Origin: Candidatus Multivoradales bacterium
Lineage (GTDB): Bacteria; Acidobacteriota; Thermoanaerobaculia; Multivoradales; J023
Assembly (NCBI GenBank): GCA_965248925.1
Contig: CBDFLE010000005.1
Location: 2,176,001-2,240,000 of the forward strand
Length of the DNA stretch: 64,000 nt
Reading direction: 5' to 3'
Made by a program: the position numbers and the translations under genes
In this document: piece after piece, positions 7,044 to 50,400 of the stretch
Layout of the letters: each line of letters begins with the position of its first letter
How positions within the stretch are numbered: the first letter of the stretch is position 1
The notes under the pieces: model-generated
What the model saw: only the letters and a program-made list of their open reading frames with translations
Databases searched by the model: none
Told to the model about the DNA's origin: nothing

Positions 7044-7502
7044 GCTTCTCCTATGGTATTCGCAGGATCGCTCAACTCTGTGTTGCTTATCACCGAGCTA
7101 ATTCGTCACCGTGCCAGGTTAGAGCCCATCACTGAACAAAGCCATGCTCAAACGTCCGCAAGATCTGTCCATTCGGCTGCGCGGCTAGCGCCGGCAAAGC
7201 TATCGAGGACCTCCTGCCGGTCCTGCTGCACTTGCTGCATGCGGTCCTCGCCCACCACCTCGTGCTGGGTATTCGAGCCGAGAGCGCGCAACCTTCTTCA
7301 ACCTATGCCGCGGGAGCGAATCACGTGCTATCCCACTGCCCTACCGCCAAATTCTCGGTACAAAGAGGAACGGCCCGAAAGGCGGAGTCCTTTGGTAGCC
7401 TCTGCTGAGCAAATCAGTGGCTCCGGGCTGCCTGCGCAAAGTCTCAGGTCCTGTCTTGTTCTGCCCGCTGCCAGGATGCCCTACGGCGAAGGTCTGTCAA
7501 CA

Positions 7503-12914: not shown

Positions 12915-12963
12915 GATCTCAAAGGCCCCTCGGGCCACGATCCGAACCGCAAACGGATCGCTC

Positions 12964-14034: not shown

Positions 14035-14372
14035 GCCAACTCCTCTCCACAGTTCAAACGGTGACCAGGGCAACCCGAGAGTTTCCGGAAATCGCTGCCT
14101 CAGAGTAATAACTTGAAGAGGAAGATCACCGGGTCGAGCATATACCAAGACTCCCGGAATGAGCGTTTCTCGACTCCGCTCTGAGCACTGCCCCGGCTTT
14201 CGAGAGATCCTTCTGGAAGGTCAGATTCTTTCTGCTTCTCGGCACTTTCTCGAGCCGCGGCTAGAACAGCCTGAGCCCCTCCCCGACCTACTCCGCCTGA
14301 TACACTGAAAACGAAGCGTACTCGCCACAGATTGACCCTTTAGCCAACGACGATTGCCACTGTGGAATCATC

Positions 14373-16827: not shown

Positions 16828-17436
16828 TCAGGCTTCGATCTGCTCGAGGACCCGGCGTAGTTCTGCTTCCTCACCGATCAGCTGACGCTCGGCCGCAGCG
16901 CGAATGGCGGCGATTTGCTCCGCCGCCCAATCGTGGGTCATCAACTCGGTGAAGTAGATCCGTTTGACCCAGGGTCTCTGCAACTGCTGAATCTCTTCAA
17001 GCACTCCCTCGAGGCCGTGCAGGTCGAGCAGTCGCTCAACCCGCCGCTCGACTCCCAAGCCAGTGCGGCGAATCACCAGCGGCAAATGCTCAGTCAACCA
17101 GCGCTCAGCGGCCGCGGCGGCTAGGGGTTGGTCGTCGAGGGTCACAGCGCGTTGCGGAACTCCGCCAGCCGAGGCCCGATATTCACACCGCACCGTGCCG
17201 CCCTCGCCCGCCTGCCGAATGATCAGATAGCTGCCGGCGGCAAGATGGGCGACGTCGCCATCGTCGTCCGCAAAGATGATCTCACCCAGGGCCTCGACTT
17301 TGTAGAGCGAGCCACTGCCATGGTCTCCCCAATTGTAGATCTCAGCCACCGAACTGTCGGCGACGATCTCCCCACCTCCCGCAGCGCAGAGAGAGGCCAA
17401 GCCAAACATCGCGATCAATACTGAAGTCCATTTCAT
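16828..17436 (-). CDS. Hypothetical secreted protein translationally coupled to the terminal NRPS
   Basis: The ATG at 17436 overlaps the NRPS TGA (ATGA), with a GGAGGA RBS. Signal peptide MKWTSVLIAMFGLASLCAA. Confidence 0.75.
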   Translation of the reverse strand: MKWTSVLIAMFGLASLCAAGGGEIVADSSVAEIYNWGDHGSGSLYKVEALGEIIFADDDGDVAHLAAGSYLIIRQAGEGGTVRCEYRASAGGVPQRAVTLDDQPLAAAAAERWLTEHLPLVIRRTGLGVERRVERLLDLHGLEGVLEEIQQLQRPWVKRIYFTELMTHDWAAEQIAAIRAAAERQLIGEEAELRRVLEQIEA

Positions 17437-29400: not shown

Positions 29401-32400
29401 ATCCCCACCATGCCGACCAGCAGCTCCAGCGAGCGCTCGACGCTGAGGCCAACCCGGTCTTCCACCCCGATGCCGCGCCGCAGCAGCCCGGCAGCGAGCA
29501 GCGAAGACCGCCGGTCCAATTCACCATAGGTCAGGAACTCGCCACCGTAGCTGGCCGCTACCGCAGCTGGCCGCAGATTGACCTGACGCAGGAACAGGGC
29601 TCCGACCGACTCCCAACCAGACCCCGTGCTCGACCCTTCGTCGACCTCTAGGAGCAGTTGGTGTCGCTCGCCGCGGGTGAGCCAGGGGAGGCCGGCCAGG
29701 GGCCGTGCCGGGCTACTGACCGCCGCCTCAAGCAGGGTTTCGAAATGGCCCAGGAACCGCGCCACGGTCGCCGCATCAAAGAGGTCCTTGGCGTATTGCA
29801 GGGTACAACTCAGCGAGTCCTCACTGGCTTCTACCTGGAAAGTCCAATCGAACTTGGCCAAACCGCTGTCCAGGGTCGCCATCCGCCCGCGCCGGGTGAG
29901 GTCCAGCCCAGACCCGCCGGCCGGTCCGCCCGCGAGCTCGTAGGAGTCGCGGGCACGATAGGTGAACATTGTTTGGAATAGGGGCGTCCGCCCCAGCACG
30001 CGCTCCGGCCGCAGTTCCTGCACCAAGCGGTCGAAGGGCAGATCCTGATGTTGGTGAGCTTCCAGCACCGCTTCGCGGACTCGCTGGAACAGTTGCTCGA
30101 AGCTCTCCGCCACCGACCATCGGCTGCGCAACACCAGGGTGTTGACGAAGAAACCGATCAGCGGCTGTAGCTCCTGCCGCTGGCGGCCGGCGATCGGCGT
30201 GCCAACCGAGATATCGAGCTGGCCACTATGCCTGCCGAGCAGCAGCTGGAAAACCGCTAGAGTGAGGATGAAAGGTGTCGACTGGCCGCCGCGAGCAAAC
30301 TCCAAGGCCGCGGCCGCCAAATCTGCGGGCAACCGGCGACGGACCACCGCCGCTGCCGCACGCCGCAGGCCCCGCCGGGGTCGGTCGGTGGGCAAGCCGA
30401 GCAGGTCGGGGGCTTCAGCGAGGCGCTGGCGCCAGAAATCGACCTCGGACTCCAGCAGCGGCCCGGACAACCAGTCTTGCTGCCAGGCAGCATAGTCAGC
30501 GTATTGGATTGGCAGCTCGGCCAGAGCTGCTAATCGACCGTCCACGGCGCTGCTGTAGAGTTCCTCCAGCTCCCGCTGCAGCAGCTCCATCGACCAGCCG
30601 TCGGAGACGATGTGATGCATGCTCACCAGCAATCGGTGAACAGACTGCGACAAGCTCAGCACTGTCCAGCGCAGCACCGGCCCAGCCGTCAGGTCGAAGG
30701 GTTGGCGCGCCTCCTGGGCCGCCCAACGAGCCGCCTCTCGCCGGCCATCTGTGGAGGCCAGGCCAGCAAGATCGACCAGCGGCACCGGATAGGCTTCTGG
30801 CAACGGCACGATCTCTACGGTCGGCCGGTCGGCGACTTCTGGATAGCGACTGCGCAGCACCTGGTGGCGGCTCAGCACCTGGTGGAAAGCCCTACCCAGG
30901 ATCGGCCGATCTAGATTGCCGTCCAGATCCACCGCGAAAGACATGTTGTAGATCGGGCTACCCGGATCCAAGCGATCCAGCAGCCACATGCGCCGCTGAG
31001 CGAACGACAGGGTGGGTCCATGCTGGTCGTCAACAGCCGGCACCAAAGGCGGTAGGCTGGCGGCTGAAGGCCCCTCGATAGCGGTGATCGTGGCCGCCAG
31101 TCCGGCCGCTGTCGGCTGCTCGAAGAGCGCGGCTAGCGGCAGCTCGGTCCCGAGCTCGAAATTGATCCGGTTGATCAGTCGCACCGCCACCAACGAGTGC
31201 CCACCAAGGTCGAAGAAGCTTTGCTGGACGCCGATCGGGCGAACTGCAAACAGCTCTTCGAAAAGCTCCACCAGGCGCCTCTCCAAGGCGTTGCGCGGCG
31301 CCACTAGGTCCACCCCGACCTCGTCTTCGACACTCGGCAGCGCGGCCCGATCGAGCTTGCCATTCGGAGTCAGCGGCAACTCGTCGAGCTGGGTCAAAGC
31401 AGCGGGGATCATGTAGCCCGGTAGCCGCTCTTCCAACCAGCTCTGCAGCTCGCCAAGAGCCAGGGACGATGGGTCGAGAGCCTGATCCAAGGCGGCTATC
31501 ACGTAGGCGTAGATCCGTTGGCCGAGAACCTCGTGGTCGCGCACGATGGCGACCGCCTGCGAGACCTCGTCGAGCTCTTCCAGCAGCGCCTCGATCTCCC
31601 CCAGTTCGATGCGAAAGCCACGAATCTTGACCTGATGATCGAGCCGGCCGAGGTATTCAAGCTCGCCTCCCGAACCTCGCCGAACCAGATCACCAGTGCG
31701 ATAGAGGCGTTCTCCAGCCTGGCCAGCGAACGGATCGGGGACGAAGCGCGCAGCGGTGGCCGCCGGGTGGCACCAATACCCCCGGGCCAGCCCGTCGCCG
31801 CCGATCGACAGCTGGCCAGCAACGCCGAGCACCACCGGTCGCCCTACCGCATCGAGGACATGCAGAGAGGTGTTGGCGATGGGCCGCCCGATCGGCACTG
31901 TCACAGCGCTAGCGGTCGGCGCCTGCAACAGCTTGAAGCAAGCGGCGAAGGTCGTGCATTCGGTGGGTCCGTAGCCGTTCACCAAGCGCACCTCCGGCAA
32001 CGCCTGGTGGGCCGCTCGAACGGCCCGTGGATCGGCGGCCTCGCCGCCATAGATCAAGGTCTGCAAACCGCGGAAGGCCGCTGGCCGGTCGCGGATCAGC
32101 AGATTGAACACCGAGGTGGTGAGGAACATGTGATCGATCCGCAAGCGGGCCAGCGAATCGGCCAGCCGCTGTGGCGAGACCAGCACCTGCGAGTCGATGC
32201 CGACCAGCTGGCCGCCGTTCAGCAGCGGCATCCAGAACTCGAGGGTGGCGGCGTCGAACGATGCGGTCGAGGCTTGGGCCGTGCGTTCGCCCGCCCGCGG
32301 GTCGACATAATCGGTGTTGCGCACCAGCCGCAGGATCGCCAGATGGGGTATCGCGACCCCTTTCGGCTGACCGGTCGAACCGGAGGTGAACATGATGTAG

Positions 32401-35400
32401 GCCAGCTGCGCCGGCTGCACCTCGGCGGAGCGATCGACAGCCTCTCCTGCTTCGATCTCCGGCCAATCGCGGTCGAGACACAAAACCTCAATCGCCGCGG
32501 TCGGCAAGCGTTCGAGCAAGTCCTCGGAGGTCACCAGCACCGACACGCCAACGTCGCTCATCATCAATCGCAGGCGCTCTGCCGGATAACCTGGATCGAG
32601 CGGCACGTAGGCGGCACCGGCCTTGAGCACCCCGACCATGGCGACCAGCAGCTCCAGCGAACGCTCGATCGACAGCCCGACCCGGCTTTCTAGGCCAACT
32701 CCGCGGCGCTGCAAGGCGCCGGCCACCAAGGACGCTCGCCGGTCTAGTTCGGCGAAGCTCAAGGAGGCGTCGCCATAGCTGGCAACGATCGCCTGCGGCT
32801 GCCGGGCACTGTGCTGAGCGAGCAACTGGCTGATCGAAAGATCCCGCTCGATCCACGACCGGGTGTCGTTATGCTCGACCAGCAGCTGGTGCCGTTCCGC
32901 CGCCGCGAGTAGATCGATCGCCGCCAGAGTCTGGGTGGGTCGCTGCACCACCTGGCCAAGCAGATTCTCGAAATGGCCCAAGAAGCGTGCTGCCGTCGAG
33001 CGGTCGAAGATCTCTCGATCATATTCGAGTAGGCAGCTGAAATGACCACCGACCTCCGCCACCTGCAACGACCATTCAAACTTTGCCAGGCCGCTGCTGA
33101 CCGTGTCCAAGCCGCCGGGGTTGGTCGCGGCGCCATCGTCGGCTGGCGCCTCGGCATTTGCCGCCGCGGCGCTGTAGGTGAACATCGCTTGAAAGAGAGG
33201 CGTCCGGCCCAGGGCGCGCTCCGGCCGCAGCTCTTGCACTAACAGGTCAAACGGCAAGTCCTGGTGCTGGTGGGCCTGCAACACTTCGGCCCGAAGGCGC
33301 AGAAAGAGCTCCTCGAAGGTGTCGCCTGGCGCCCACTGGGCGCGCATCACCAAGGTGTTGACGAAAAGGCCGATCAGGTGGTGAAGCTCATGGCGATGAC
33401 GCCCACTGATTGGTGTTCCCACGCTGAAATCGAGCATGCCGGTGTAGCGACCGAGTAGGAGCTGGAAGACGGCCAAGGTCAGAATGAACGGCGTGGCGCG
33501 ATTCTGATGGGCAAACGCGAGGACATCTGTGGTCACCGCTGCCGATATTTGCCGGGTGCAGGCCGCCGACCGAGACCGCATAAGACCACCGCGAGGTCGG
33601 TCGGCTGGCAGCTCGAGAAACTCCGCCGCGCCATCAAGGCGCTGCCGCCAATAGTCGATCTCCGACTCCAGTAAGTCGCCCGACAACCACTGCTGTTGCC
33701 AAGCCGCGTAGTCACCATAGTGAATCGGCAGCTCGACCCAACGCGGCGCCCGACCGCTCACCGCGCCGCGATAGAACTCTGTCAGCTCCTGCTGTAGCAA
33801 GCCCAGCGACCAGCCGTCGGACACAATGTGATGCATGCTCACCAACAGCCGGTAACCCGACCCGCCAAGGCTGAGTAGAGTCCACCGCAGCAACCCCCCA
33901 GCCTGCAGATCGAAAGGCCGCCGAGCCAGCTCAGAGGCCCAGCGACCCGCTTGCAGCTGACCATCCCGCGGCTCGAGACCGGCCAGGTCTACCAGGGGTA
34001 CAGCGTAGGCGGCCGGCAGTGGCTCGATCTCCACCGAGGGCTCGTCGGCGACTTCCGGAAAACGACTGCGAAGCACCTCGTGACGCCGCAGAACCTGGTG
34101 CCAGGCCCAGCCCAGCGCAGGCCGATCAACCGCTTCTCCCAGATCGACCGCATAAGCCATGTTGTAGGTCGGGCTGCCCGGATCCAGCCGGTCGAGAAGC
34201 CACAAGCGACGCTGAGCGAAGGACAGCGTCCGCCGCTGATCAGCTGCCATCAACACCAGCGGCGGCAAGGCCCAGGCCGGTTCTCCCGTCGAGCCCTGGC
34301 GCAGCACTTCGGCCAGGCTGGCGACTGTCGCGTGCTCGAAGAACGAGGCCAACGGTAGATCCTGTTCGAACCGCTGCTGGATCTGAGCTTGTAGCCGCAC
34401 CGCCACCAACGAATGACCGCCCAGCTCGAAGAAACTCTGGTGGATGCCAACCGCCGACCGGCCAAGCAGCTTCTGGTAGATCTCCACCACCTCCATCTCG
34501 ACCGCATCCCGGGGCGAGCTCATCAACTCGGCCGCGACCGGCTCGCCGACATCCGGCAACGCCTGGCGATCGAGCTTGCCGTTGGCAAGCAATGGTAATT
34601 CGCTCAGAACAGCGATCCCGGTGGGCACCATGTAAGGCGGCAGATGTTGCTCCAGAACGTCAAGCAAGCTGCTGCGGAGATCACCTGCGGAGCCACTCGA
34701 GGGGAGGGCCGGGCTAGGCACGACATAGGCGAATATCCGGTTGCCGAGGGTGTCGTGGCGACGCACCACGGCGACCGCCCGAGCCACTCCCGGCGCCCCT
34801 TTCAGCAAGCATTCGATCTCCCCTAATTCGATGCGAAAACCGCGCACTTTGACCTGGTGATCGATGCGTCGCAGGTAATCGATCACCCCATCGGTGCGTG
34901 AGCTCACCAAATCACCGGTGCGGTAAAGCCGTTCTCCGGCCACCCGCGCCCAAGGATTCGGCACGAAGCTGGTGGCGGTCCTGGCGGCCAGTCCGCCATA
35001 GCCGCGGGCCAGGCCAACCCCGGCCAAGCACAGCTCGCCGACCACCCCCAGCGGCACTGGCCACAGCTCACCATCCACCAGATGAGTGCGCAGGTTGGCG
35101 ATCGGCCGACCGATCGGCACCCCAGCCTCAACATCCTCCGCGGTGCAAGTCCAGGCGGTCACCTCGATCGAGGCTTCAGTGGGTCCGTATAGATTGTGCA
35201 AGGGCACCGATCCCAGGCGGCGGCGATAGCTGCTCAGCAGCTCTGCCGACAACGCCTCACCGCTGGCCAGCACCCCCCGCAGGCTGGCGCAATGTCTCTC
35301 GATATCGGCGCTGGCCAGGAAAGCGCTCATCATCGACGGCACGAAGTGCACATGGGTGATCCGCCAGCGGGCCAAGGTCCGCTTCAAATACTCCGCATCA

Positions 35401-38400
35401 CCGTGCGCTTCAGGCCGCGCCAGATAGAGGGTGGCACCGGCGATCAGCGGCCAGAACAGCTCGTTGACCGACACATCGAAAGTCACCGGCGTCTTCTGCA
35501 ACCAGCGATCCGCTGCCACGAGGGGCATCGTCGTCTGCCCCCAGAGCAGCCGGTTGACCACTCCGCGATGAGAATTCATCACCCCCTTCGGCCGGCCGGT
35601 CGAGCCCGAGGTGTAGATCACGTAGGCCAGCTGGTCGGGGTCAGGACGCTGGAGGGCCGGCACCCGGAGCGCCGCCGACGGCGAAGCGGCGCTGTCGAGC
35701 AAGACCAGCTGGCGTTCGCTCGCCCAGCGCGAGGCCCACTTGGATTGGCTCAGCACCACGTCCACGTCGCTATCGTCAAGCATGAACTCCAACCGCTCTT
35801 GCGGATCGCCGGGATCGAGGGGCAAATAGGCAGCTCCGGCCTTCCAGATCGCCAACAGTCCAACCACCAGCTCGACCGAGCGCTCAGCGCAGATTCCCAC
35901 CCGGGTCTCCCGCCCCACACCGAGGTCACGTAGCCGCTGGGCCAGCGATTCACTGCACCGCTCGAGCTCGCCGTAGCTCAGCGCCGCCCGTTCTGAAACC
36001 AGCGCCAAGGCATCCGGATTCGCTACCGCCCGACTGCTGATCAGCTCATGAACACAGCCCTCGGCGGCCTCGAAGACGACCTCAGTATCGAGCTGCTCGA
36101 TCAACACCTGATGCCGCTCCGCCGGTCGCCAGAGAGCCAGTTCGGCGAGCGCCCGGGTGGGATCAGCAAGAGAGTTGGTGAGCAACTCACGGTAGTACGT
36201 CAGCCACCGCTGGGCAGTGACGTCGTCATAAAGGTCGGTGTTGTACTCCAGCTCACAACCCAGCTGGGTGCCATGTTCGGCCGCCGCGAAGGTCAGATCG
36301 AATTTGGCGGTGGCCGCCACCGCGCCGTCGCTCCCCTGCACCTCCAGACCGTCCGCTGGCGGCTCAGCAAGCTGCCGAGCGGCATCCACGGCACTGCGGA
36401 CCCGGGCCTCGGCCGAGAAGTTCATCAACACCTGAAATAACGGCGGGAAGGCCAGGCTGCGATTCGGTTGTAGCTCTTCAACCAACCGCTCGAAGGGCAG
36501 GTCCTGATGATCTTGAGCTTCGACCAGCAGCTCTCGCACCTGGGCGACGATGGCCGCGAAGCAGTCATTCGGCGCACACTGCACGCGGGCCACCACGACA
36601 TTGACGAACAGTCCGATCAAATCCTCCACCTGGCGGTGACGGCGACCGGCAACCGGCAGCCCGACCACCACGTCGCGCTGTCCGCTCAAGCGACTGAGCA
36701 GCATCGCCAGGACGCTGAGGGCAACCGTGAAGGTGGTCACTCGACTGCGCTGGGCGAAGCTCTTCAGCCGGTCGAAACTGGTGGCAGAGAGAGACGAAGC
36801 GATGCCCGCGCCGCGGAACGTCTGCACCGCAGGGCGCCGCCTGTCGGTCGGTAGCTCGAGCCGTTCCGGCGCCCCCGCTAGACGCTGGCGCCAGTAACTC
36901 AACAGCCGCTCCAAGCGCTCTCCACTGAGCCAGCGGCGCTGCCAGGAGGCGAAATCCGAATACTGCAAGCGAGGTTCTTCGAGCACTGGCGGATCGCCGG
37001 CGGCAAAGGACTGGTAGAGTTCCTCCAACTCGCGTTCCAACACCGACATCGACCAACCGTCAGAGAGGATGTGGTGCAAGGTGATCAGCAAACGGTGGCG
37101 CTGCTGGTCGATCCGCAGCACCTGCCAGCGACTGGTCGGGCCGCGTTCGAGGTCGAGAGCAGCGCTGGCTTGCTGAGCGGCGATACGGTCGGCCTGGCGG
37201 TCGCCGGCCGGCGACCGTAGGCGGCTGAGATCGATGCAGGTCAAGCCGACTGCCGAAGGTGGGTCGACGCAAACGCTGGGCCGCCCCTGGGAAGTGATGG
37301 GAAAGCGCGAGCGCAGCACCTGGTGGCGCCGCAGGAGTTCATACACCGCCCGGCGCAAGGCGCCCAGGGCGAGGCCTCCTTCGAGCCCGACGGAGTACGG
37401 CATGTTGTAGGCCGGGCTGTCCGGCTCCATCAAATGGAGGAACCACAGCCGCTCCTGGGCATAGGATAGCTGCGCCGGTTGGCTTTGCCCTCGAGCGGCG
37501 GCCAGAGAGCCGATCAGCGGCTCGAGCTGCAACTCCCATCCATCTTCCTCAGCCACCCCTCTGGACTCCAGAGTCGCCGCCAATCCAGCGATCGTCGGAT
37601 GTTCGAAGAGACTCGCCAGCGGCACCGCTCGACCGAGTTCCTGCTCGACTCGATTGAGCAGCCGAACCGCCACCAACGAGTGTCCGCCGAGCTCGAAGAA
37701 GTTCTCTCCGATAGCGACCGTCGGACGCTCCAACACCTCGCTCCAGATCTCCGACAAGACCTGCTCCAGAGCCGTGCGGGGGGCTTCCAAGCGAGCGTTC
37801 TCGAGCGGCTCCAGGGCGAGCAGAGCGCGACGGTTGAGCTTGCCGTTGGCGGTCAGTGGCAGCTCGTCGAGCAGTCGGTAAGCAGTCGGTAGCATGTAGA
37901 CCGGCAGAGCCACCTCAAGAGCTCCGCGCAGGCTGTCCAGGGTGCTGCGTTGATCATTCTCCGACGGCCTCTGGGCCAGCGGCTCAGCCGGCACCACAAA
38001 GGCCAGCAAACGCGGCGTGGAGCCCTCCTCTACCGCAGCCAGGACAACCGCCGACCGTACTGCGGCCAAACTCTCGAGAGTGCGCTCGATCTCCCCCAGC
38101 TCGACCCGGAAACCGCGAATCTTGAGCTGCTGATCGATCCGCCCGAGAATCTCGATTTCACCTGCGGCCGAATGGCGGGTCAAGTCACCGCTGCGATAGA
38201 GGCGACCACCGGGGTGGGCGGCGAACGGATCGGGGACGAAGCGCGCAGCGGTCAGAGCCGGCGAACCGCCATACCCCCGGGCCAGTAGCCCTCCCGCCAA
38301 CGCCAGCTCACCAGCGATCCCCGGAGCCACCGGCCGCAGCCAGCGATCCAGCACATAGGCCCGGCAACCGGGGAGCGGCCGCCCGATCGGCACCGCAGCG

Positions 38401-41400
38401 CTACCACCCCCGCGCGGTGACTGGCTGGTCAACACCCCGACGGTGGTCTCGCTGGGGCCGTAGTGATTGATCAGCAGGCACTCGGGAGCGAGCCGTTCGA
38501 GTTCGGCCCACAACTCCCAGGTCGAGGCTTCGCCGCCGAGGATAAGGCGCCGACGGGGCAGCGCATCCGCCGGCCTGTCGCCCTTCAGCAACTCGGCGAG
38601 GTGGGTCGGAACGATCTTCAAACAATCGATCGGATGGCGCTGGAAGTAGCTCTCAAAAGCCGCCGCGTCGGTCACCGTCTGATACGGCAAAACGTGCAGC
38701 ACAGCGCCGTTGACCAGGGCTGGGAAGAGCATGGTATTGCCCAGATCAGCGCCGAAAGTCGAGACCATCGCATACGAACGGCAGTGGCGCAGCTGCAGCC
38801 GCTCGATCACCGCCCAGCAGTAGCCCATCAGCTGGGCGTGGCCCACCTGCACCCCTTTCGGCAGACCACTGGAGCCGGAAGTGAAGATCACATAGGCCAG
38901 AGCGTCACCACCGAGTTCGCCGACCGGTTCGAGCACGCCGCCATCGAAATCCTCGAATTCCTGCCAGCAGGCATCGATCACCACCGCCGCCCGGCGCACC
39001 CCCGGCGGTAAGCCATCGACCAGCTCGGCGGCGGATAGAAGCAGTGGATTTGCCGCCTCGTCGAGGATCGCCGCGACCCGAGCGAGGGGCTGGCGGGGAT
39101 CGATCGGCAGGTAAGCGCCGCCGGCCTTGAGCACCGCCAGAAGAGCGACCACCATGCTGCTCGAACGCTCGAGCCACAGCGCCACCGGCACTTCCGGTCC
39201 AACCCCGCGGCGGCGCAGGAAGCGGGCCAATTGGTTGGCTCGGCGATCGAACTCGCCATAGCTCAGCTGGGTGTCGGCGGCCACCACCGCGATCGCCTGC
39301 GGCCGCTCAGCGGCATGGGCCTCCACCCACTGGTGGAGCTGGCGCGACGGCTGGACGCTGCCGGTGTCGTTCCATTCCTCGAGCAGCGTGTGGCGTTCGC
39401 CGCGACTCAGCAGGTCGACTTCCACCGGCAGCAGCGCCGGGTCGGAGATCAGCGCCCGCAGCAGACGTTCGAAGCGCGCCAACCACCCCTCAACCGTCTC
39501 AGCGCTGAACAGGTCACGGTCATATTCCAGCTCACACTGCCAGCTCGGGCCGCTGTTGACCGTCATTTTCAAGTCGAACTTGGCCCACCCGGTCGCCACC
39601 CCATAGGCATCGGCGGCATAGTTGCCAGGCTCCCCGGCCGCATTCGCGGCAGCCTCTCCGAGCGCTCCGAAGTTCGCCTCGTGGAACGAAAAGAGGGTTT
39701 GAAACAACGGCGTGTAGGAACGGTCACGCTCCGGTCGCAACTCCTCGACCAGCTTGTCGAAAGGCAAGTCTTGGTGCAAATGGGCATCGAGGGTGTGCTC
39801 GCGAACCATCCGGATGAGCGACCGGAAGGCCCGCTCACCGACTCCCCTGCTGCGGATCACCAGGGTATTGACGAAGAAACCGATCAAAGGCTCGAGCTGA
39901 CGATGGTGGCGGCCGGCGATCGGCGTCCCCACTGACAGATCAGCCTGACCGGTCAAGCGGGCCAGCAGAGCTTTGTAGGCCGCCAACATGACCATGAACG
40001 GCGTCGCGCCCTCGGTCCGCGCCAACTCTTCGATAGCCTCGACCAGCGTGGCTTCAAGCTCCAGCCGGGCGTAGCCGGCACGGTGGCCCTGGACCTTGGG
40101 GCGCGGCCAATCGAGGGGTAGTCGCAGCATCTTGGGCGCCTCGGCCAGGCGCTCTTGCCAGTAGGCGATTTCCGCCTCCAGCACCTCCCCCGCCAGCCAG
40201 CCTCGCTGCCAACCGGCGTAGTCGCCGTACTGCAACTCAAGCGCTTCGAGGGGCGAAGGGAGGCCGGCGGCGAAGGCCCGGTAGAGCGCCGACAGCTCAG
40301 CCCGCAAGATGTCGAGAGACCAACCGTCGGAGACGATGTGGTGCATTGCCACCAACAGCAAATGCTGCCGCGGAGTGAAGCGCAGCAAGCTCTGGTAGAG
40401 CATCGGACCGCGGCTCAGATCAAAGACCTTGAGCCGATGAGCGGCGGCCAGGCAGTCACCTATCGCCGTTCGATCGGCGGCTTCCAGATGGCTCAGATCG
40501 ATCAGCGGTAGGACCGCCACCGGCCCCTCGTCCAGCACTTGCTCGAGGGCATCCTGACCCATTTCTAAGCGACCCCGCAGCACCTCATGGCGACTCACCA
40601 CCGCGGCAAAAGCGCGCCCCATGGCGGCGGGATCGATGGCTCCTTCGAGGCGGACCTCGAACGGTATGGTGTAGAGAGGGCTTGCCGGAGCCAGTTGATC
40701 GAGCAACCACATCCGTTCCTGAGCGAACGAAGCGCGGCGGCGAACAGCGGGCGGCAGAGCCACCATCGGCGGTCGTTCGGCCTGCTGGCCAGCGCCCCGA
40801 GCCTGCTTCACTCCGGCCGCCAGTTGCCGGATGGTCGGCGACTCAAAGAGCACCCGCAGCGGCAGCTCGACCGCACAGGTCTCCCGCAACCGAGACATCA
40901 GCTGGGTGGCCATCAGCGAGTGACCACCGAGGGCAAAAAAGTCGTCTTCCACGCCAACCTCGGCGAGGCCCAGAACTTCCTTCCACAGGCCGACCAACAG
41001 CTCCTCTACCGCGGTCCGCGGCGGACTAGCTTCGCCACCGCGCAGCGCCACTTCTTCGAGCTGCCGACGCCGTAGCGCCGCGGTGTCGATCTTGCCGTTG
41101 GGGTTGAGCGGCAACTCCGGCAGCAGAACGTAACTCGCCGGCTGCATATAGGGTGGCAACTGCCGCGCCACAGCGCTGCTCAAGCTACGTTCGAGGCGGT
41201 CGTTGCGCGCTGCCTCCACATCGCCACCGGGAACTACGAACGCCACCAACTGGCGATCGGCCTGCTCACCCACCGGTAGCACAAAGGCCGCCGCCACCCC
41301 TTCCTCGGCCTCCAGCACGACGGCAATCTCGCTCGGCTCGATGCGGAAACCACGAATCTTGACTTGCTGATCGATCCGGCCCAAGAATTCCAGCTCGCCG

Positions 41401-44400
41401 CCGTGTTGCCGGCGCAGCCAATCGCCGCTACGGTAGAGCCGCTGCCCGGGCAGGTCGGTAAAGAGGGCCGGAACGAAGCACTCGGCGGTCAACGCGGGTC
41501 GGTTCCAATAGCCCCGCGCCAACCCCTGGCCGCCGATCCACAGCTCGCCGCCGACCCCCAGCGGCGCGACCTGCCCGCCGGCCCCGACCAAGTGCAGCGA
41601 GGTGTTGGCGATCGGCAGGCCGATCGGCACGGTCCTGGAACCCTCCTGCGGTAGCTCGGACACCACCTGCCAGGAAGCGAAAGTAGTGCATTCGGTAGGG
41701 CCGTAGACGTGCAACAAACGCAAGCTCGGCGAGGCCGCCAGCACCGTGCCCACCGACCGCGGATCGCAAGCTTCGCCGCCGAAGAGGACAGTCCGCAAGG
41801 TGGCGAGAGCCGCCGGTTGCAGCCGCGCCACCAGATTGAACACCGAGGTGGTGAGGAAGGCATGGTCGACCCGCTGCCGGCGCAGAACTCGCGCCAGACG
41901 ATCCGGCGCCAGCAGCTCCGACTGCTCGATTCCGACCACCTGCCCGCCCCCCAACAACGGCCCCCAAAGCTCGAAAGTGGCGGCGTCAAAGGAGGCGGTC
42001 GAAGCCTGGGCAACGCGCTCGCCGGAGCCCACCCGCAGGTAGTCGGTATTCAACAATAGGCGCAGAATGCCGGCCTGCGGCACCGCCACTCCCTTCGGCC
42101 GGCCGGTCGAGCCCGAGGTGTAGACGATGTAGGCTAGGCTCGCAGGTGGCGCCGCAACACCAGTCTCGATCGCCGAACCGGCCTCGATCGCCGACCAATC
42201 ACGGTCGAGGCAGAGCACCGTGACGCCAGCAGCCGGCAACCGCGTGGCCCCAGCCTGCTCGGTGACCAACACGCTCAAATCGGCGTCTTCGATCATCCAG
42301 CGCAGGCGCTCCTCGGGATAGGACGGATCGAGGGGCACGTAGGCGGCACCGGCTTGGACGATGCCGAGCATACCGACCAGCAGATCGGGCGAGCGCTCGA
42401 CACTGAGCCCAACCCGATCCTCGCGGCCGACCCCGAGTCCCGCCAGGCTGCCGGCCAGCAAGGCGGCACGGCGGCGCAGCTCGCCGTAGCTCAGCCACCG
42501 CTCGCCGTAACTCACCGCCGCCGCATCGGGCCGCGACCGAACTTGCTCCAGGAAGCAGCCGGCCAGGGTCAGTGGCGGCAAGGTGGCGGCCGCGTCGTTG
42601 AACTCCAGCAACAGCTGATGGCGCTCGGCGGCGGCGAGCAGCGGAACCGCGGAGAGTTTCAACGCCGGCACCTCGCTCCAAGCCTCGACCAGACCGCCGA
42701 ACTGCCGCAGCAGCCGCTGTATCGATACTCGGTCGAACAACTGCCGATCAAATTGCGCGCCCACCACGGCCCCGTCAGCGGTGACGGTCAAGGTCATCGA
42801 GAGGTCGAATTTAGTGGTCGCTTCAGCGCGGCTCCAGGGCTCGACTTCGATCCCCGGTACGGCGCCAGCGCGCTGCTCTTCCGGCCCCTGATCGTCGAAG
42901 CTGAAAGTGGTTTGGAACAGCGGCGTCAACGATAAATCCCGCCGCGGTTCGAGCTCCTCGACGAGGCGTTCGAAGGGCACCTCCCGGTGGGCGTAGGCTT
43001 CCAGCGCCAGCGATCGGGTGCTCTCCAGATGGCTAGCGAGGTTGGGGTCTGAGCCCAGCTCGGCGCGCAGCACCAGGGTGTTGACGAAGAAGCCGATCAA
43101 GCCCTCGGTCTCGGGCTGGTCGCGACCCGCCACCGGCGTGCCGACCACCACATCGCGCTGGCCGCAAATGCGCGCCAGCAGTCCTTGGTAAAGGCCCATG
43201 AAAGCCATGAAGTCGGTGGCGCCAACTCTCCGGGCGTGCTCGCGAAAGCGGAGGATCGAAGCCTCTGGCAGCCGCAACTCGCAGCCACCGGCCGGATAGC
43301 GGCGGCGCATCGGGCGCGGCCGATCAAGCGGGAGTTCAAGCCGCGCCACGCCGGCCAGTCGCCGCCGCCAGTAGTCCACTTGACGCTCGAGCAGCTCACC
43401 GCTCAGCCACTGCCGCTGCCAGATCGAGTAGTCGGCGTAGTGCACCGTCAGCGGCGCCAAGGGCGCCGGCCGGCCGGTGCTGGCGGCGGCGTAGAGGGCG
43501 GTCAGCTCGCGCCACAAGATATCGATCGACCAGCCGTCGGAGACGATGTGGTGCATGACCACCGCCCAGAGATGGTCGCCATCTCCGAGGCGGACCAGCA
43601 AGGCGCGGATCAGCGGCCCGTGGGCGAGGTCGAAGGGCCGCCGGACCACATCGGCAAGGCAGACCTCGGCCGCCGAGTTCGCCACCTCGCGCTCGAGGGC
43701 CGAGAGATCGACCACAGCACCGCCAGCGGCGGTCGGCGGCAGAATTTGTTGCACCGGCGACGGTCCGTCGCTACGGAACACGGTGCGCAGGCTTTCGTGC
43801 CGCTCGATCGCCGCCGCCAGCGCCGATCGCAATGCCGCGACGTCGAGCTTTCCCCGCAACCTTACCGCCAGCGGCATGTTGTAGGCGGTGCTGTCCGGAT
43901 CGAGCTGGTCGATCAACCACAGTCGCTGCTGAGCGAAAGACAGCGGCACCTGGTCGCCGCGTTCGAGCGCCAGCAAAGGTGGCCGCGCCAGGCTGTCGCC
44001 GACCTGTCCGGCCGCCACCGCCGCCGCCAGCTGGCGGATGGTTGGGCCGTCAAAGATGGTGCGTAGTTCGAGGTCAACCTCGAACTGGCGCCGCAGGCTG
44101 GAGATCACTCGGGTCGCCAGGATCGAGTGGCCACCGAGTTCGAAGAAGCTTTCCGTAGTGCCGACCACGTCGAGCCCGAGCAGCTCCTGCCACAGCTCGG
44201 CGATGGTCTGCTCGACCGGCGTGCGCGGCAGCTGCCGCTCGACCGCCCGCAGCATGCCAAAACGCTGCGGCGCCGGCAGAGCGGCGCGGTCCAGCTTGCC
44301 ATTCGGCAACAGCGGCAGCTCTTCGAGCTGGATCCAGGCCGCCGGCAGCATGTGCTCTGCCAGGTCGGGCGCCAGATGCTCTAGCAGCTGGTCGAGGGTC

Positions 44401-47400
44401 AGCTGATTGTCGCTGACCCCATAGGCCACCAGCCGCCGATCTCCAGGCTCATCCTGGCGGGCGATCACCACCGCGGCGCGGATCTTCGGATGCTCTAGGA
44501 TGCGCGCCTCGATTTTGCTGAGCTGGATCGGGAAGCCGCGAATACTGACCTGGGAGTCCAGCCTGCCGAGCAACAGCAAGGCTCCATCTAGCCGCCGACG
44601 AGCCACATCACCAGTGTGGTAGAGCCGCTCTCCCCAGGCCCCCGGTCGTGGGTCGGGCACGAAGGACTCGGCGGTCAGAGCCGGGCGCCCAGCATAGCCG
44701 CGGGCCAGGCCGACGCCGCCGATGTGGAGCTCACCGGCAACGCCGATCAGCGCCGGCTGCAGCTCTGGGGTCATGACGTCGAGGCGCAGGTTGGCGATCG
44801 GCCGGCCGATCGGTACGGCGCCGGATTCCTCTGCGGCGCCGCAACGCCAGGCGGTGACGTCGATCGCCGCCGAGGTGGGACCGTAGAGATTGTGTAGGTC
44901 GCAGTCCAGGCGGCGGCGGAAGTCCGCCACCAGGTCGGCCGGCAAGGCCTCGCCGCTGGAGATCACCCGCCGCAGCGAAACGCCGCGACGCTCTAATTCA
45001 CTGGCGGTCAGGAATCTACGCAATAGGGACGGCACAAAATGCAGCGTGGTGATGCGCTGCTGCTCAATCAGCTGCGCCAGCTGTCGCCCATCGCCCTGCC
45101 CACCCGGTAGCCCCAGCACCAACTCGGCGCCACTGAGCAACGGCCAGAAAACCTCCCATACCGAAACATCGAAACTTATCGGCGCGGTCTGCAACAGCCG
45201 GTCACCGAGCCCGACGGGGAAGGCCGATTGCATCCACAATAAGCGATTGACGATCGCCCGGTGGCTAATCATCGCCCCCTTCGGCTGGCCGGCCAGGCCC
45301 GCCGTGTAGATGACGTAGGCCAACTGATCGTCATCGATGGCAAGTCTGGGCTGGAGCTGGGAGCCGGTCTCTGGCCACGGCCGGTCGAAGCACAGAATCG
45401 CCGGGCCGTCTTCAGGCAATCGATCGAGCAGATCGCTGTGGCCCAAGACCAGCTCCACCGCACTGTCTTCGATCATGTAAGCGAGTCGATGCTGCTGATC
45501 CTCGGGGTCGAGGGGCACGTAGGCGGCGCCAGCACGGAGTACACCGTGCAGCGCGATCACCAGCTCCAGCGAGCGCTGCAAGCAGACCCCGACCCGGCTT
45601 TCCGGCCTGATCCCCTGGGCGCGCAGGCGGTCGGCCAGGCACTTGCTACGGCGATCAAGCTCGCCATAGCTCAAGGCGGTGGCGCCACAACGGATCGCGA
45701 CCCGCTCGGGCCAGCGCCGCGCGGCTCGCCACAAGAGCTCCGCCAGGCTGAGCTCAGCTCCCTCGAGTCGCTGCTGGGTATCGTTCCACTCGCTGATCAC
45801 CTGCTGGCGTTGAGGCGGCGGCAACAGCTCGCCGCTGGAGTGCGAGTCGTCTGGGGTGAAGGCCATCGCCAACAGCGTTCTGCGATAGACCTCGGCCACC
45901 CCGCGGACTTGCGCGGCGGTCAACTGATGGCTGTCGTACTCGAAGCTGAGATAAACCCGAGTGGACTCGAAGTCGCGGCTGAAATGGGCCAGCAGCGGAA
46001 AATCGGCGCCTTCTCGCTTGCGGAAGCCGAGCACCTCGACGTCGCCGCTGTCGAGCACTTCCTGGACGACGTGGAAGTAGATGTAGTTGAACGCCACCTC
46101 GTACAGGGGCCGGTCATGCAGCCGGCGCTGCAGCACGGCGAAGGGAAAGCGCCGGTGCGGCAGCAGCTCGGTCTCGCGGCGGAAAGTCCGCGCCACCAGG
46201 TCGCGCCAGGAACCAGCGCCGAGATGCAGCCGGAAGGGCAAGGTGTTGAGGAACAGGCCACGCACTTGATCACCGCCGCGCTCCTCCAAGCGGCCGTTCC
46301 AGACCACCCCGGTGACCACGTCCTGCTGACCGGTAACGCAGCCCAACGCCTTCAGGTGGGCGGCCAGTAAGACACTCTTGAGCGGCGCTCCCACCGCCAC
46401 CCCCAACGCCTTCAGGCCATGGCTGACGGCGGGGCCAAAATCGAGATCGACGTTGCGCATCCGTGGTCGGAGCCCGGCCTTGGCCAGTCCCAGACGCGGA
46501 ACCTCGGTCAACGGGCTATCCTCCAGTGCCCGGCGCCAAAACTCTTCGGCCTCGGGCGAGCGGATGGCCTGCTGCTCGAGCTGGATGAAGTCGCGGTAGC
46601 CGACGCTGGGCAGCTCGGGCTCGGCCGGCTCCTCGCCTTCGAGCAGACGGAAATAGAACTCGAAGATCTCCGCCAAGGTCGAGTGTAGGCTCCAGCCGTC
46701 GAAGATGGCGTGGTTTTCGGTCAGCATGAACTCGAAGCTGTCCGCAGCGCGCAGGCAGACGTGGAAACGCAGCTGCGGCACCTTGGTGAAATCGAAGCGA
46801 TGCCGCTTCTGCGCCGCCATCAGCGCCTGCACCCGCGCCTCCTGCTGCTCTGGGGTCAGCCGCCGCAGGTCGAGGATCGCGGTCGCCAGCTCCGCTTGCC
46901 GATGCACCAGCTGTAGGGCCTTGCTGAACCCGGTCAGGTGGAAGGAGGTCCGCATCACCGGGTGCCGCGCCACCACCCGCGCCACTGCCCGGCGGAATGG
47001 CCCGGCCTCGAAACGGGCCCGCAAATGCCAACTGTCCACGTTGTGGTACAGCGGATCCTCAGGGGTCAGCTCCATGTGGTACAACATGCCTGCCTGCAGC
47101 ACGCTCAGCGGATAAGCGTCTTCGACATCGGCCGGCAGCAGCCGCCGATCCGACTCCGAGACCAGGCCCAGCGGCCCCACGCGGGCCGCTGGCTCCGCCG
47201 CTCTAGACCCCGCATCGCCGTCCTTCGCCAGCGCCGCCACCAGGGCACCGATGGTCTGGTGGCGGAAGAGATCCGGCAAGCTCAGCTGCACCCCCTCCTC
47301 GGCCGCTCGCGCCAACACCCGCAGGCTAAAGATCGAGTCGCCGCCGAGAGCAAAGAAGTTGTCCTCCACCCCCACCCGATCGACCCCCAGCACCTCCGCC

Positions 47401-50400
47401 CACACCGCCGCCAAGATCCATTCTGTAGGATGCCGCGGCGCCACGTACTCGGCGCCACTGGCCAGCCGCTCGCCAGCCTCCGGCTCGGGCAGCGCTCCGC
47501 GATCGAGCTTGCCGTTGGCGGTCAGCGGCATTGACTCCAGCACCACGAACGCTGCCGGCATCATGTAGGCCGGCAGGCGCTCGCCGAGGTGGCCGCGCAA
47601 TGCCTCCAACTCCAGCTCCGCGCCCACCGCCGGCACTACCCAGGCCACCAGTCGCGCGGACTCGGCGCCCGCTTCCTGCCGCGCCAGCACCGCCGCCTCC
47701 GCCACCGCGGCATGCTCGGCCAACGCCGCCTCGATCTCCCCCAGCTCGATGCGAAAGCCCCGCACCTTTACCTGGTGGTCGATCCGACCGAGGTATTCCA
47801 GCTCGCCGCCCGCCAGCCAGCGAGCCAGATCCCCCGAGCGGTAAAGTCTCTCTCCCTCACCCCCGGAGTGAGGATCCGGCACGAAACGGGTCGCGGTCAG
47901 GCTCGGCCGGCCGAGGTAACCCGGCGCCACCCCAGCGCCACCGACCACCATCTCGCCACCCACCCCCTGCGCCACCGGCCCGCCGCGGCAATCCAGCAAG
48001 TACACCCGCAGATCCGCCAGCGCCCGGCCGATGCGGCTGCCGAAGCCCGAGCGCACCTCCGCCTCCAGCAGCCGATGGTAGGTCACATGCACCGTCGTCT
48101 CGGTGATGCCATACATGTTCACCAGGCCCGGCGAAGCATCGCCATACCGCTCCACCCAAGACAACAAGGTCGACGGATCGAGCGCCTCACCACCAAATAC
48201 CACCCAACGCAACGCCAGCTCGGTGGGACGCTCCGCCGCCACCTGAATGAGCTGGCGGAAGGCCGACGGAGTTTGATTGAGGACCGTCACCCCCTCCCCG
48301 CTCAGCAGCTCCAGGAAGCGCTCCGGCGAACGACTCACCCAATAGGGCACCACCACCAGCCGGCCGCCATAGAGCAACGCGCCCCAGATCTCCCACACCG
48401 AGAAATCGAAAGCGTAGGAGTGAAACAGGGTCCACACATCAGCCTCACCAAAGCCAAAATCGGCCTCGGTCGAAAGCATCAAGCGCAGCACCTGGCGGTG
48501 GCTGACCACCACCCCTTTCGGCCCGCCAGTCGAGCCTGAAGTGTAGATCACGTAAGCGGCTTGGGAGGGATCGCCAGCCACCCAGGAGGGCACTGCCTCG
48601 AAGCTTTCAGTCACCGCCCTCGGCGGCTCGCCAGCGTCGATCTCGAGCACCGTGCCCGCCACCTCAGGTAACCGGGAACGCAGTTCGGCGGTGGTCACCA
48701 GCGCCGTCACGCCACTATCCTCGGCGATGAAGCGCAAGCGCTCTGCCGGCACCTCGGGATCCACCGGCACATAGGCCGCGGCGCAGCGCAGAGTCGCCAA
48801 GATCGCCACCACCACGGACACCTCGCGCAAAAGCAGCAGACCCACGAAGTCCCCCGGTCGAACCCCCGCCGACCACAGCCGGCCCGCCAGTAACTCGGCA
48901 GCCGCCCGCAGCTCCGAGTAGCTCAAGGAGCGCTCTTCGTAGCTCAGAGCCAGGGCTTCAGGGCAGCGCGCGGCGACTGCCGCAAAGGCCTCCCACAACC
49001 CGCCCGCGAGCTCGTAGCTGGCACCGCTACCGCTCCACTCCAGCAGCAGCTCCTGGCGCTCGGCGGCGCTCAGCAATCTCAGCGATCCGAGTTCGGCGGC
49101 GGGATCCTCGGTCACCCCGCGTAGTAGTTGTTCGAAGTAAGCCGTCCAACGACTGATGGTTGAAGCTTCGAACAGGTCGAAGGCGTATTCCAAGCTGCCG
49201 ACCAGCCGACCGCTAGACCAGTGCATTTGCAAGTTGAGGTCGAATTTAGCGGTGCCGGTGGCGGTGCCGAGCGCCGAGATCCTCATCGCCGCGTCACCCT
49301 CCGCTACGGGCCCCTCGACCGACTCACTGCCGCTGTTCTGCACCGCCAGGACCACCTGGAAAATCGGCGTGTGATCGAGAACACGCTCGACCACCAAGTC
49401 GTCGACCAACTTCTCGAAGGGCATTCCCTGATGGTCATAGGTGGCGACCGTGAAGCTCCGCACCTGCCGCAGAAGCTCGGCGAAGTTGGGGTTGGCGCTG
49501 AGATCACCCCGCAGGACCACCATGTTGGCGAAGTAACCGATCAAGGGCTCGGTCTCGGCCAACATGCGACCCGCCACCGGCGCCCCCACCAGGACATCGG
49601 CTTGGCCACTCAGTCGGCTGAGCAGGGCCTGAAAGGCGGCGGTCAGGAGAATGAAAACCGTCGCATCTAGGGACTTCGCCAGCCCTTCGATCGCCACCGA
49701 CAATTCGCGGTCGAGGGCGAAGGGATGGGTCGCACCGCGGTAGGTCATCTCCTGCGGCCGTGGTCGGTCCGTCGGCAGGGGGAGGAAGCGCGGCGCGCCG
49801 GCCAGGGCCTGGCGCCAAAACTCCAGCTCCTGCTCCATCTCCTCCGCGCCCAGCTGCTGCCGTTGCCAAGCGGCGAAGTCGGCGTACTGCACCGGCAGCT
49901 CGGGCAGCGCCGGCATCTCGCCGGCCTGCTGGCCCAGGTACACGCTGCCGACTTCGCGAATCAAGATCTCGCTGGACCAACCATCGGTCAGCAAATGATG
50001 CAGGGTCAGCATTACCAGATGCTCGCCCGCCGCCAGGCGGACCAACGACACCCGCAGCGGCGGCCCGGCGCCGAAGTCGAACGGTCGGCGAGCATCGGCC
50101 GCCACCAGCGCCTCGCCGATCCGCCGCGCCTGTTGCAAGCTCAGCCGTGAAAGGTCGACCTGGGGAAGCTCGATCCGCTGCCGGCTTTGAATCTCCTGCA
50201 CCGGCGAGCCATCGACTTCAAAGAACCGGCTGCGCAGGATCCCGTGACGCTCGATGACCACGGTCAAAGAACGTGACAGCAACCCAACATCAAGCCGGCC
50301 GACCAGCCGAAACGGGCTGGGGATGTTGTAGACCGCCGTCCCCGGCGTCAAGCGCTCGAGGAACCAGAGTCTCAGCTGAGTGAAAGACAAGGGTGCCGGC

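Follow-up and report, generated by a model that had tools for sequence, protein, structure and literature searches.

A degenerate adenylation domain behind a dehydrating condensation domain in a 27-module nonribosomal peptide synthetase: a candidate for carrier loading by another module

Introduction

Inactive in-line adenylation (A) domains, inter-modular loading and other workarounds have already been described in nonribosomal peptide synthetases (NRPSs). In the fusarinine C synthetase SidD, A1 loads the carrier (T) domains T1 and T2 owing to an inactive A domain (dA) in module 2, and in SidC, A3 loads T4 and T5, the carriers one and two modules away (PMC10192304, in its accessible text). 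In the albicidin and cystobactamid systems, an inactive A domain is complemented in trans by a stand-alone A-T protein; the original prediction for the present locus had pointed to this precedent, and it is indeed published (PMC8949500, excerpt). Here, we analyzed a 64,000-nt stretch of an Acidobacteriota genome (hereafter the window, G000:C5:2176001-2240000), in which the second A domain of a 10-module NRPS, named A2°, lacks residues that are nearly invariant in its relatives. A2° is a new candidate for the cases above, in a bacterial assembly line of 27 modules.

The Glu of motif A5 is a Mg2+ ligand in A domains. Motif A3, defined as (S/T)(S/T)G(S/T)TGxPK, binds the nucleotide phosphates, and motif A8 is the conformational switch between the two half-reactions (PMC10510592, excerpt). 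Condensation (C) domains of the CmodAA type have [K/R]SVLLAAH before motif C5, the DG of HHxxxDG and an Arg pair in C6, and the first His of HHxxxDG is lost in 7 of 50 of them, according to the accessible part of PMC11342130.

Results

Motifs of A2°

The genome examined measures 7.98 Mb in 6 contigs and is 96.9% complete. The minus strand of the window holds an 11,033-aa open frame (G1) and the 3′ part of a second NRPS frame that runs off the window. G1 (17433..50534, minus) encodes ten modules with a C-terminal thioesterase (TE; GWSMG) and is the final gene of a lipopeptide assembly line with 27 modules, which continues upstream past the window edge. In the whole-genome view, the cluster consists of seven co-directional NRPS genes, named G7 to G1. 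A2° (44244..45800, minus) is the second A domain of G1; its designation as "module 2" in the original prediction holds within this protein but not for the assembly line, where it is about the 19th of 27 modules.

The window contains 14 A3 motifs (10 in G1 and 4 in the next open reading frame), of which 13 are canonical and A2° is the exception. The phosphate-binding loop A3 (45276..45308, minus; originally placed 1 nt off) reads YTAGLAGQPKG instead of YTSGSTGxPKG. It does not match the A3 pattern, as the three hydroxyl residues are A, L and A in TAGLAGQPK, while its glycines and PKG are retained. Motif A5 (44871..44885, minus) reads YGPTS instead of YGPTE, with Ser in the place of Glu and the codon TCG where the sister domain G2_A3 has GAA. 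In A8 (44508..44567, minus), which reads GRLDSQVSIRGFPIQLSKIE, the hinge R, D and G are kept and the K, R, E, G and E of the hairpin are changed. Motif A7 (44607-44621, minus) is YHTGD, an Arg-to-His change, and the Pro of the A2 motif is Gln.

The other landmarks are unchanged, namely motifs A1, A4 and A6, the A7 Asp, the A8 hinge R/D/G and the A10 Lys. TGD fits the A7 pattern (S/T)GD, R-L-D-SQVSIR-G fits the A8 hinge pattern Rx(D/K)xxxxxxG, and PLLPNGK fits the A10 pattern PxxxxGK (PNGKLDR, 44286-44306, minus). The A-T linker LPAP after A2° is intact. All these strings are in frame with the G1 open reading frame. The motif losses reported earlier relative to the 13 canonical A domains of the window thus stand, and sequence and alignment agree with the intact frame, specificity code, A10 Lys and GGHS T domain. 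The code DVWHISLIDK was taken from motif-anchored alignment columns. From specificity-code tables, we take DVWHISLIDK and DVWHISLVDK to be Ser codes and DFWNVGMVHK to be a Thr code.

A2° still matches the family profiles AMP-binding (PF00501, 272.5 bits) and AMP-binding_C (PF13193, 34.6 bits), both above the cut-offs, and its best relatives of solved structure are NRPS A domains. The sister domain scores higher (304.4 and 56.5 bits). Plain codon substitutions account for the changes, several of them at two or three bases of the codon (such as GAA to TCG in the case of Glu to Ser). A frameshift artefact was ruled out because no other reading frame gives canonical motifs. Judged by its sequence, A2° has lost residues that would bind the nucleotide phosphates and Mg2+, together with most of the conserved A8 hairpin.

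Rarity of the motif loss

We scored 20 key catalytic positions across A3, A5, A7, A8 and A10. A2° deviates at 8 of them, each 98-100% conserved in 879 external domains. Among the other 59 NRPS-type A domains of the genome, 57 have no deviation and 2 have one; the 26 others of the cluster all have none. The claimed loss of ATP-binding residues was therefore borne out (8 of 20 positions, against at most 1 in any of the 59).

The external sample consisted of 240 NRPS proteins, which yielded 909 full-length A domains (879 unique). A second set of 119 unique A domains from the nearest short proteins brought the external total to 998; both sets were picked by likeness to the query, and the activities of their members are not known. 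Deviations among the 879 domains numbered 0 (837 domains), 1 (37), 2 (1), 3 (1), 6 (1), 7 (1) and 13 (1), and among the 119 further relatives 0 (116) and 1 (3). The domains with 6 and 7 deviations are N-terminal fatty acyl-AMP ligase (FAAL) starter domains, which belong to another subfamily. A comparably decayed A domain was thus found once in 998. At the positions changed in A2°, the 879 domains conserve the A3 residues at 100% (S), 99.9% (S/T) and 99.5% (T/S), the A5 Glu at 99.9%, and the A8 residues at 99.7% (K), 99.3% (R), 99.4% (E), 91% (G) and 99.7% (E/D).

An alignment of all 60 A domains of the genome gave a similar picture. A2° is off at 7 of 39 columns that are at least 95% conserved among the rest, and the median domain at 0. 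Closest to this count come G4_A1, off at 6 of 42 columns, and a domain in a 1132-aa protein of contig C6, off at 7 of 42. These two are divergent throughout: at the 80% level they deviate at 25 and 26 columns, A2° at 15 and the median domain at 7. On these counts, the deviation of A2° is far beyond chance.

The only other clearly degenerate A domain among the 998 lies in P0182, a 7414-aa NRPS of a Pyrinomonadaceae metagenome-assembled genome (residues 5478-5996), and is changed at 13 of 20 positions. It differs from A2° in its setting: the order is C-A°-C without a T domain, the A10 Lys is lost, and the preceding C domain is a canonical HHIISDG one. Both flanking C domains are canonical. By its architecture, the P0182 domain is a module remnant that has stayed in frame, whereas the A2° module is kept.

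Distribution of the changes within the domain

The nearest relative of A2° is G2_A3 (57263..58822, minus), a Ser-coded A domain (DVWHISLVDK) three modules upstream with all motifs canonical; the identity between the two is 58% by the search and 56.5% by the alignment. In a phylogeny of Ser-type domains, A2° came out as the sister of G2_A3 (support 0.947), with branches of 0.66 and 0.48, respectively. The tree set includes 13 other Ser-coded domains, of which 2 belong to this cluster and 11 to other genomes; the motifs of all 13 are canonical.

At columns invariant in these 13 domains, A2° is changed at 18 of 125, and each of the 13 under the same test at 2-6. In the less conserved column classes, A2° is ordinary (16%, 44% and 72% changed, against ranges of 5-19%, 35-50% and 69-84% in the others). 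The 18 changes include three in A3, one in A5 and five in A8, as well as the A2-motif Pro, a Lys-Thr pair before A4 and the His in PGGH. Changes affect 9 of the 29 invariant columns in A3, A5 and A8 and 9 of the 96 outside these motifs (Fisher p 0.0067). With 12 Ser-domain outgroups, derived changes at invariant columns number 18 in A2° and 4 in G2_A3 (binomial p 0.004), and at other columns 57 and 50 (p 0.56); the heterogeneity test gave p 0.017. Tajima tests gave p values from 0.008 to 0.29 depending on the outgroup. This pattern fits a loss of constraint on the ATP/Mg site and the A8 hairpin, with the rest of the domain presumably still constrained.

Two further arguments from these counts were not kept. 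The sister split supports a fold held under selection, but uniform moderate relaxation would also fit. The intact Ser pocket, which the original prediction had read as a sign of selective loss, is indeed intact, but its retention is not evidence of selectivity because keeping 8 of 8 invariant code columns after the loss of 18 of 125 (14%) has p ~0.29 by chance.

We also considered that A2° may still adenylate Ser and load its carrier, T2, slowly but fast enough, in which case the module would be an ordinary elongation module giving dehydrobutyrine (Dhb)-Ser. The Ser code, A4, A6, A10, the A7 Asp, the A8 hinge, the P-loop glycines with PKG, the LPAP linker and T2 are all kept, and there is no clear excess of change outside the invariant columns, all of which agrees with residual activity. 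However, A2° lacks all three A3 hydroxyls together with the A5 Glu and four A8 residues that are charged or conserved, and even two such changes have no match in the 998 external and 59 internal domains save for the one decayed domain, two weak cases and the FAALs. The clustering of the changes in catalytic motifs is moreover what lost catalytic constraint predicts. We consider a slow but sufficient A2° unlikely; that the domain is catalytically dead or dispensable is, on the conservation data, quite probable.

The module around A2° and its paralogous unit

The neighbors of A2° are well preserved. Upstream lie A1 (47475..49049, minus), a canonical A domain with the presumed Thr code DFWNVGMVHK and the predicted donor for the dehydrating C domain, and T1 (47223..47450, minus), a carrier of the GGDSI type. 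The C domain between T1 and A2° (45801..47144, minus) came to attention through a missing HHxxxDG match: its first His is absent (NHAIFDG, 46695-46715). It has KSVLLAAH (46356-46379), the conserved DG and the C6 Arg pair (HRRFPF). Its best solved relatives are the C domain of McyA (8jbr; 6.1e-102, 344.8 bits) and the dehydrating C domain of AmbE (7r9x; 9.6e-59, 202.5 bits), and all other solved C domains score at most 138.7 bits. By signature and structural relatives, it is a C domain of the CmodAA (dehydrating) type. As this domain follows a Thr-coded module, the earlier reading that Dhb precedes the A2° module is a fair one.

Behind A2°, T2 (44004..44237, minus) scores 67.8 bits against PP-binding and carries GGHSI at 44121-44135 with the Ser codon within. 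It shows no deviation at columns at least 90% conserved in an alignment of 28 regular-expression hits (27 carriers and one false hit). The next C domain, C3 (42615..43985, minus), is a canonical HHIVSDG domain that accepts the chain from T2.

A paralogous unit is present in G6: a Thr-coded A domain 77% identical to A1 (G6_A1), a GGDSI-type T domain and an NHAIFDG C domain 55% identical to the CmodAA domain of G1, followed by a canonical Gly-coded A domain. Outside this genome, the external proteins contain 41 domains with the CmodAA signature. A full A domain stands behind 38 of them and is canonical in every case; the other 3 are without a detected full-length A domain. The idea that a CmodAA domain followed by a dead A domain might be a recurrent architecture was therefore rejected in the sample examined (0 of 38 degenerate).

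State of the assembly line

The NRPS frames are open over ~100 kb, and downstream of T2 run 8,843 codons without a stop. In 20 simulated trials, random substitution of 1% of the bases over these codons introduced 7.9 stops on average and at least 4 each time. Since the motif decay in A2° took many substitutions, the downstream modules were under selection meanwhile. General decay of the cluster, which the original prediction had named as a possible refutation, is not seen in the 26 other A domains of the cluster, in T2 or in the downstream codons.

These data bear on whether the cluster might be silent or dying, with A2° as the first lesion of a dead gene, or whether the sequence itself might be wrong through an assembly or consensus error. 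A2° being a singleton without an orthologue in the collections searched would agree with either. Against this, the long frames are open, the other 26 A domains show no deviation at any of the 20 key positions, the many multi-nucleotide substitutions are confined to one domain without indels, and 1% random change downstream would have yielded ~8 stop codons. We regard both explanations as very improbable.

With the downstream part open and intact, the chain must get past the A2° module. There are three ways: A2° still works, T2 is charged by something else, or the chain passes without elongation.

Orthologous clusters, in which a shared degeneration was to be looked for, were not found in the collections searched. 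Genome contigs searched by peptide patterns gave a best identity of 50%, a set of 40 relatives plus all 23 other genomes of the family a best outside match of 55%, and metagenome contigs a best of 50%. In a collection of 5.8 billion proteins, the best matches were 54% (883-2520 aa), 47% (5499-17499 aa, scored over the CmodAA domain and A2°) and 54% (277-882 aa), with the 2521-5498 aa band and proteins below 277 aa left out of this search. An 11,071-aa frame in a relative (G004) resembles an orthologue by size only; its architecture differs.

Search for a loader of T2

The original prediction had proposed a stand-alone A-T protein, a SyrC/CmaE-type transferase or a shuttle. None of these is encoded in either flank of the cluster, which hold only dioxygenases, transporters, peptidases and regulators, and no free-standing A or A-T protein is found among the 60 NRPS-type A domains of the genome. 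The two shortest A-carrying proteins are G4 (1175 aa, DARHLALMTK) and the 1132-aa protein, which belongs to another cluster (DGLHMVLLTK); neither has a Ser code. AMP-binding matches in the genome total 79, and those beyond the 60 are weak matches in single proteins of ~500-900 aa, which we take for acyl-CoA-ligase-like enzymes. The 27 NRPS-type A domains of the line are each followed by their own T domain, with no surplus A domain and no A-less module. Ser-coded A domains in the genome are only G7_A2, G2_A3 and A2°; the first two share the code DVWHISLVDK, are canonical and lie 17 and 3 modules upstream of A2°, respectively.

Loading in trans by a stand-alone A-T protein, perhaps aided by a transferase or shuttle, would follow the albicidin and cystobactamid pathways. 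It has the published precedent in its favor (PMC8949500, excerpt), and ~3% of the genome may be unseen. Since no separate A-T gene is present in the cluster or the genome, the albicidin/cystobactamid solution has no counterpart here; with neither flank encoding such a protein and neither of the shortest carriers of an A domain coding for Ser, we hold this to be the least probable of the explanations considered.

Another possibility is a non-elongating module. T2 would never be aminoacylated, the CmodAA domain would dehydrate Thr, and the chain would pass through T2 as a way-station or skip from T1 to C3, giving a 26-residue product. This agrees with a dead A domain and no dedicated loader in the genome. 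Conversely, we know of no C domain that passes a chain to a bare phosphopantetheine thiol. The fully canonical T2 argues against complete skipping, and the CmodAA domain of G6 works with a canonical Gly-coded A domain, as do 38 of 38 others, which suggests that the family normally condenses. That a CmodAA domain can act on a donor-bound substrate is known from AmbE (PMC10510592 and PMC10880069, excerpts), which again favors passage without elongation. All in all we find it doubtful, somewhat more so than a slow A2°. Its specific form, a dehydration-and-translocation module that adds no residue, with the dead A domain serving only as a platform for the CmodAA domain and T2, and with the T1-bound Thr turned into Dhb as the chain moves to uncharged T2, seems less probable again. 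It would be the NRPS counterpart of a non-elongating polyketide synthase module, to our knowledge undescribed for CmodAA modules. No case of a non-elongating CmodAA module appeared in the literature searched or in the accessible parts of the CmodAA papers PMC11342130 and PMC10880069.

Other features of the cluster

The stop-to-stop frames of the seven genes measure 5843 aa (G7, which starts with FAAL-ACP), 2742 aa (G6), 1939 aa (G5), 1175 aa (G4, A-T-C), 5377 aa (G3), 5823 aa (G2) and 11037 aa (G1, ending in the TE). The middle of the line, G6-G3, departs from textbook architecture. G6, G5 and G4 (G000:C5:2260049-2278536) each end in a C domain. HHxxxDA stands in place of HHxxxDG in the terminal C domains of G6 and G4 and in one internal C domain of G3, and the terminal C domain of G5 has HHIVSDG. 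At their N-termini, G5 and G3 have a weak C-like domain that lacks HHxxxDG, and G4 contains the unusual, divergent A domain described above (code DARHLALMTK). Four A domains upstream of the window (G5_A1, G3_A1, G3_A2 and G7_A4) are interrupted by insertions of ~290-420 aa; that of G5_A1 follows A8 and has the S-adenosylmethionine-methyltransferase-like motif VLEIGCGTG, and that of G7_A4 lies earlier, at about A4 to A5. G2_A5 (window 50777-52400), the last A domain of G2, is mildly odd in having SRKIDR at A10, with Arg for Gly before the catalytic Lys, and KINGMRIEPEEIE at A8; its 20 key positions are otherwise canonical. Modules 9 and 10 of G1 (18285-21461 and 21474-24650, minus) are tandem C-A-T duplicates of 1059 aa each with the code DVGDLGLINK, 92.9% identical in protein and 94.7% in DNA.

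Downstream of G1 follow a 204-aa frame, a MacB-type permease, two TauD-family dioxygenases and an ABC transporter. The 204-aa frame (16828-17442, minus) overlaps the G1 stop by 10 nt, has no match in Pfam or NCBIfam and is maybe no gene. The two TauD-family iron/2-oxoglutarate (Fe/2OG) dioxygenase genes (11871-13079 and 12964-14148, minus; PF02668, 4.3e-37 and 1.2e-45) overlap at their ends. A 363-aa SyrP/TauD-like Fe/2OG dioxygenase frame lies between G6 and G5 (G000:C5:2269191-2270282, minus; family read by eye), which brings such putative hydroxylases in the cluster to three. Genes for M28-family peptidases bracket the NRPS cluster, one at each end (window 7053-9887, plus; L025 15985-18432, plus). 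MbtH-like genes are on the other large contig. In the C6 region G000:C6:340324-374475, a single open frame runs to 19,437 aa; nine NRPS-type A domains were recognized within its last 12,000 residues, and two pairs among them are 98-100% identical.

Discussion

Our preferred reading, to which we give a probability of roughly 0.5, is that A2° is adenylation-dead or that its activity is dispensable, that the domain is kept in its module, and that T2 is charged by another A domain of the same synthetase. A2° would no longer make aminoacyl-AMP at a useful rate, or would no longer need to, and would persist, still folded, in an elongation module (CmodAA-A°-T) that is normal in all other respects. 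The module upstream of the CmodAA domain would load Thr, the CmodAA domain would condense the chain onto the cargo of T2 and dehydrate Thr to Dhb, and T2 would be aminoacylated by inter-modular loading. Candidate loaders are the adjacent Thr-coded A1, as in SidD, or the Ser-coded G2_A3 or G7_A2. We take loading by another A domain of the synthetase as most likely because no stand-alone loader was found and the domain order is SidD-like; loss of activity is likewise the most likely interpretation of the motif changes.

Several points weigh against this reading. Adenylation is often not rate-limiting, and a crippled domain might suffice. The argument for the inactivity of A2° is one of conservation. 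That a bacterial A domain can serve a T domain at a distance of one or several modules along a line of 27 is so far an assumption, and with A1 as the loader the kept Ser code would have no role. The arrangement is a singleton, as the 38 other CmodAA domains with a full A domain all precede a canonical one, and with no orthologue found, selective persistence of the degenerate state is not demonstrable. The excess of changes in A2° over its sister is also graded (18:4 at invariant, 12:6 at highly, 30:24 at intermediately and 15:20 at weakly conserved columns), as it would be under moderate relaxation of the whole domain. Uniform relaxation, by a rough estimate, predicts ~20 extra non-invariant changes, and ~7 ± 10 were seen; relaxation is thus only weakly disfavored.

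The question matters for the product. Colinearity would predict Dhb-Ser at this point; if A2° is dead, the residue after Dhb could be Thr, Ser or nothing. A wrong residue call would mislead the identification or synthesis of a 26- or 27-residue lipopeptide from an unstudied lineage. If our reading is right, the two copies of the Thr-T-CmodAA unit in this assembly line, one followed by a working A domain and the other by an inactive one, provide a built-in control. This control bears on the reach of an A domain to a foreign carrier in a bacterial megasynthase and on the need for a folded dead A domain as a scaffold. In genome mining, the 20-position score flags such domains, with one clear case per 998 external domains.

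The closest known system is SidD. Like the A2° module, it has the order A-T-C-A°-T with an inactive A domain retained in module 2 and a canonical A domain before it. In SidD, the A domain one module earlier charges the T domain of module 2; at the A2° module, such loading is predicted only. SidD differs in being a siderophore synthetase with the same substrate on both T domains and a C domain that is not CmodAA. It is also fungal and iterative, which further counts against the parallel. Unlike SidD, A2° keeps a code (Ser) different from that of its neighbor A1 (Thr). BlmIII reportedly contains an inactive A domain, and its carrier is said to receive its residue from the neighboring BlmIV, whose A domain has the same specificity; this lead would correspond to G2_A3 or G7_A2 charging T2. 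The T domain after the CmodAA domain of AmbE is likewise said to be charged by an A domain of another protein.

The albicidin and cystobactamid systems resemble the present one in that the core motifs of an in-line A domain are poorly conserved and the cognate T domain is intact. There, the T domain is used, and a dedicated A-T protein that also bears an additional tailoring domain is encoded in the clusters; such a protein is absent from the A2° cluster and genome. The CmodAA domains of AmbE, McyA, AlbA/B and Crz1-C2 share the KSVLLAAH signature, the DG and the C6 Arg pair with that of G1 (PMC11342130 and PMC10880069, excerpts). In AmbE, the T domain after the CmodAA domain has no A domain at all (PMC10880069, excerpt), whereas the A2° module keeps a full-length, degenerate one. 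No CmodAA module with a dead A domain turned up in the literature searched, including the accessible parts of these two papers, and one may still be in print. Compared with these systems, A2° is unusual in its position behind a CmodAA domain, in the lack of a dedicated partner gene and in being accompanied by a live paralogous module as a control.

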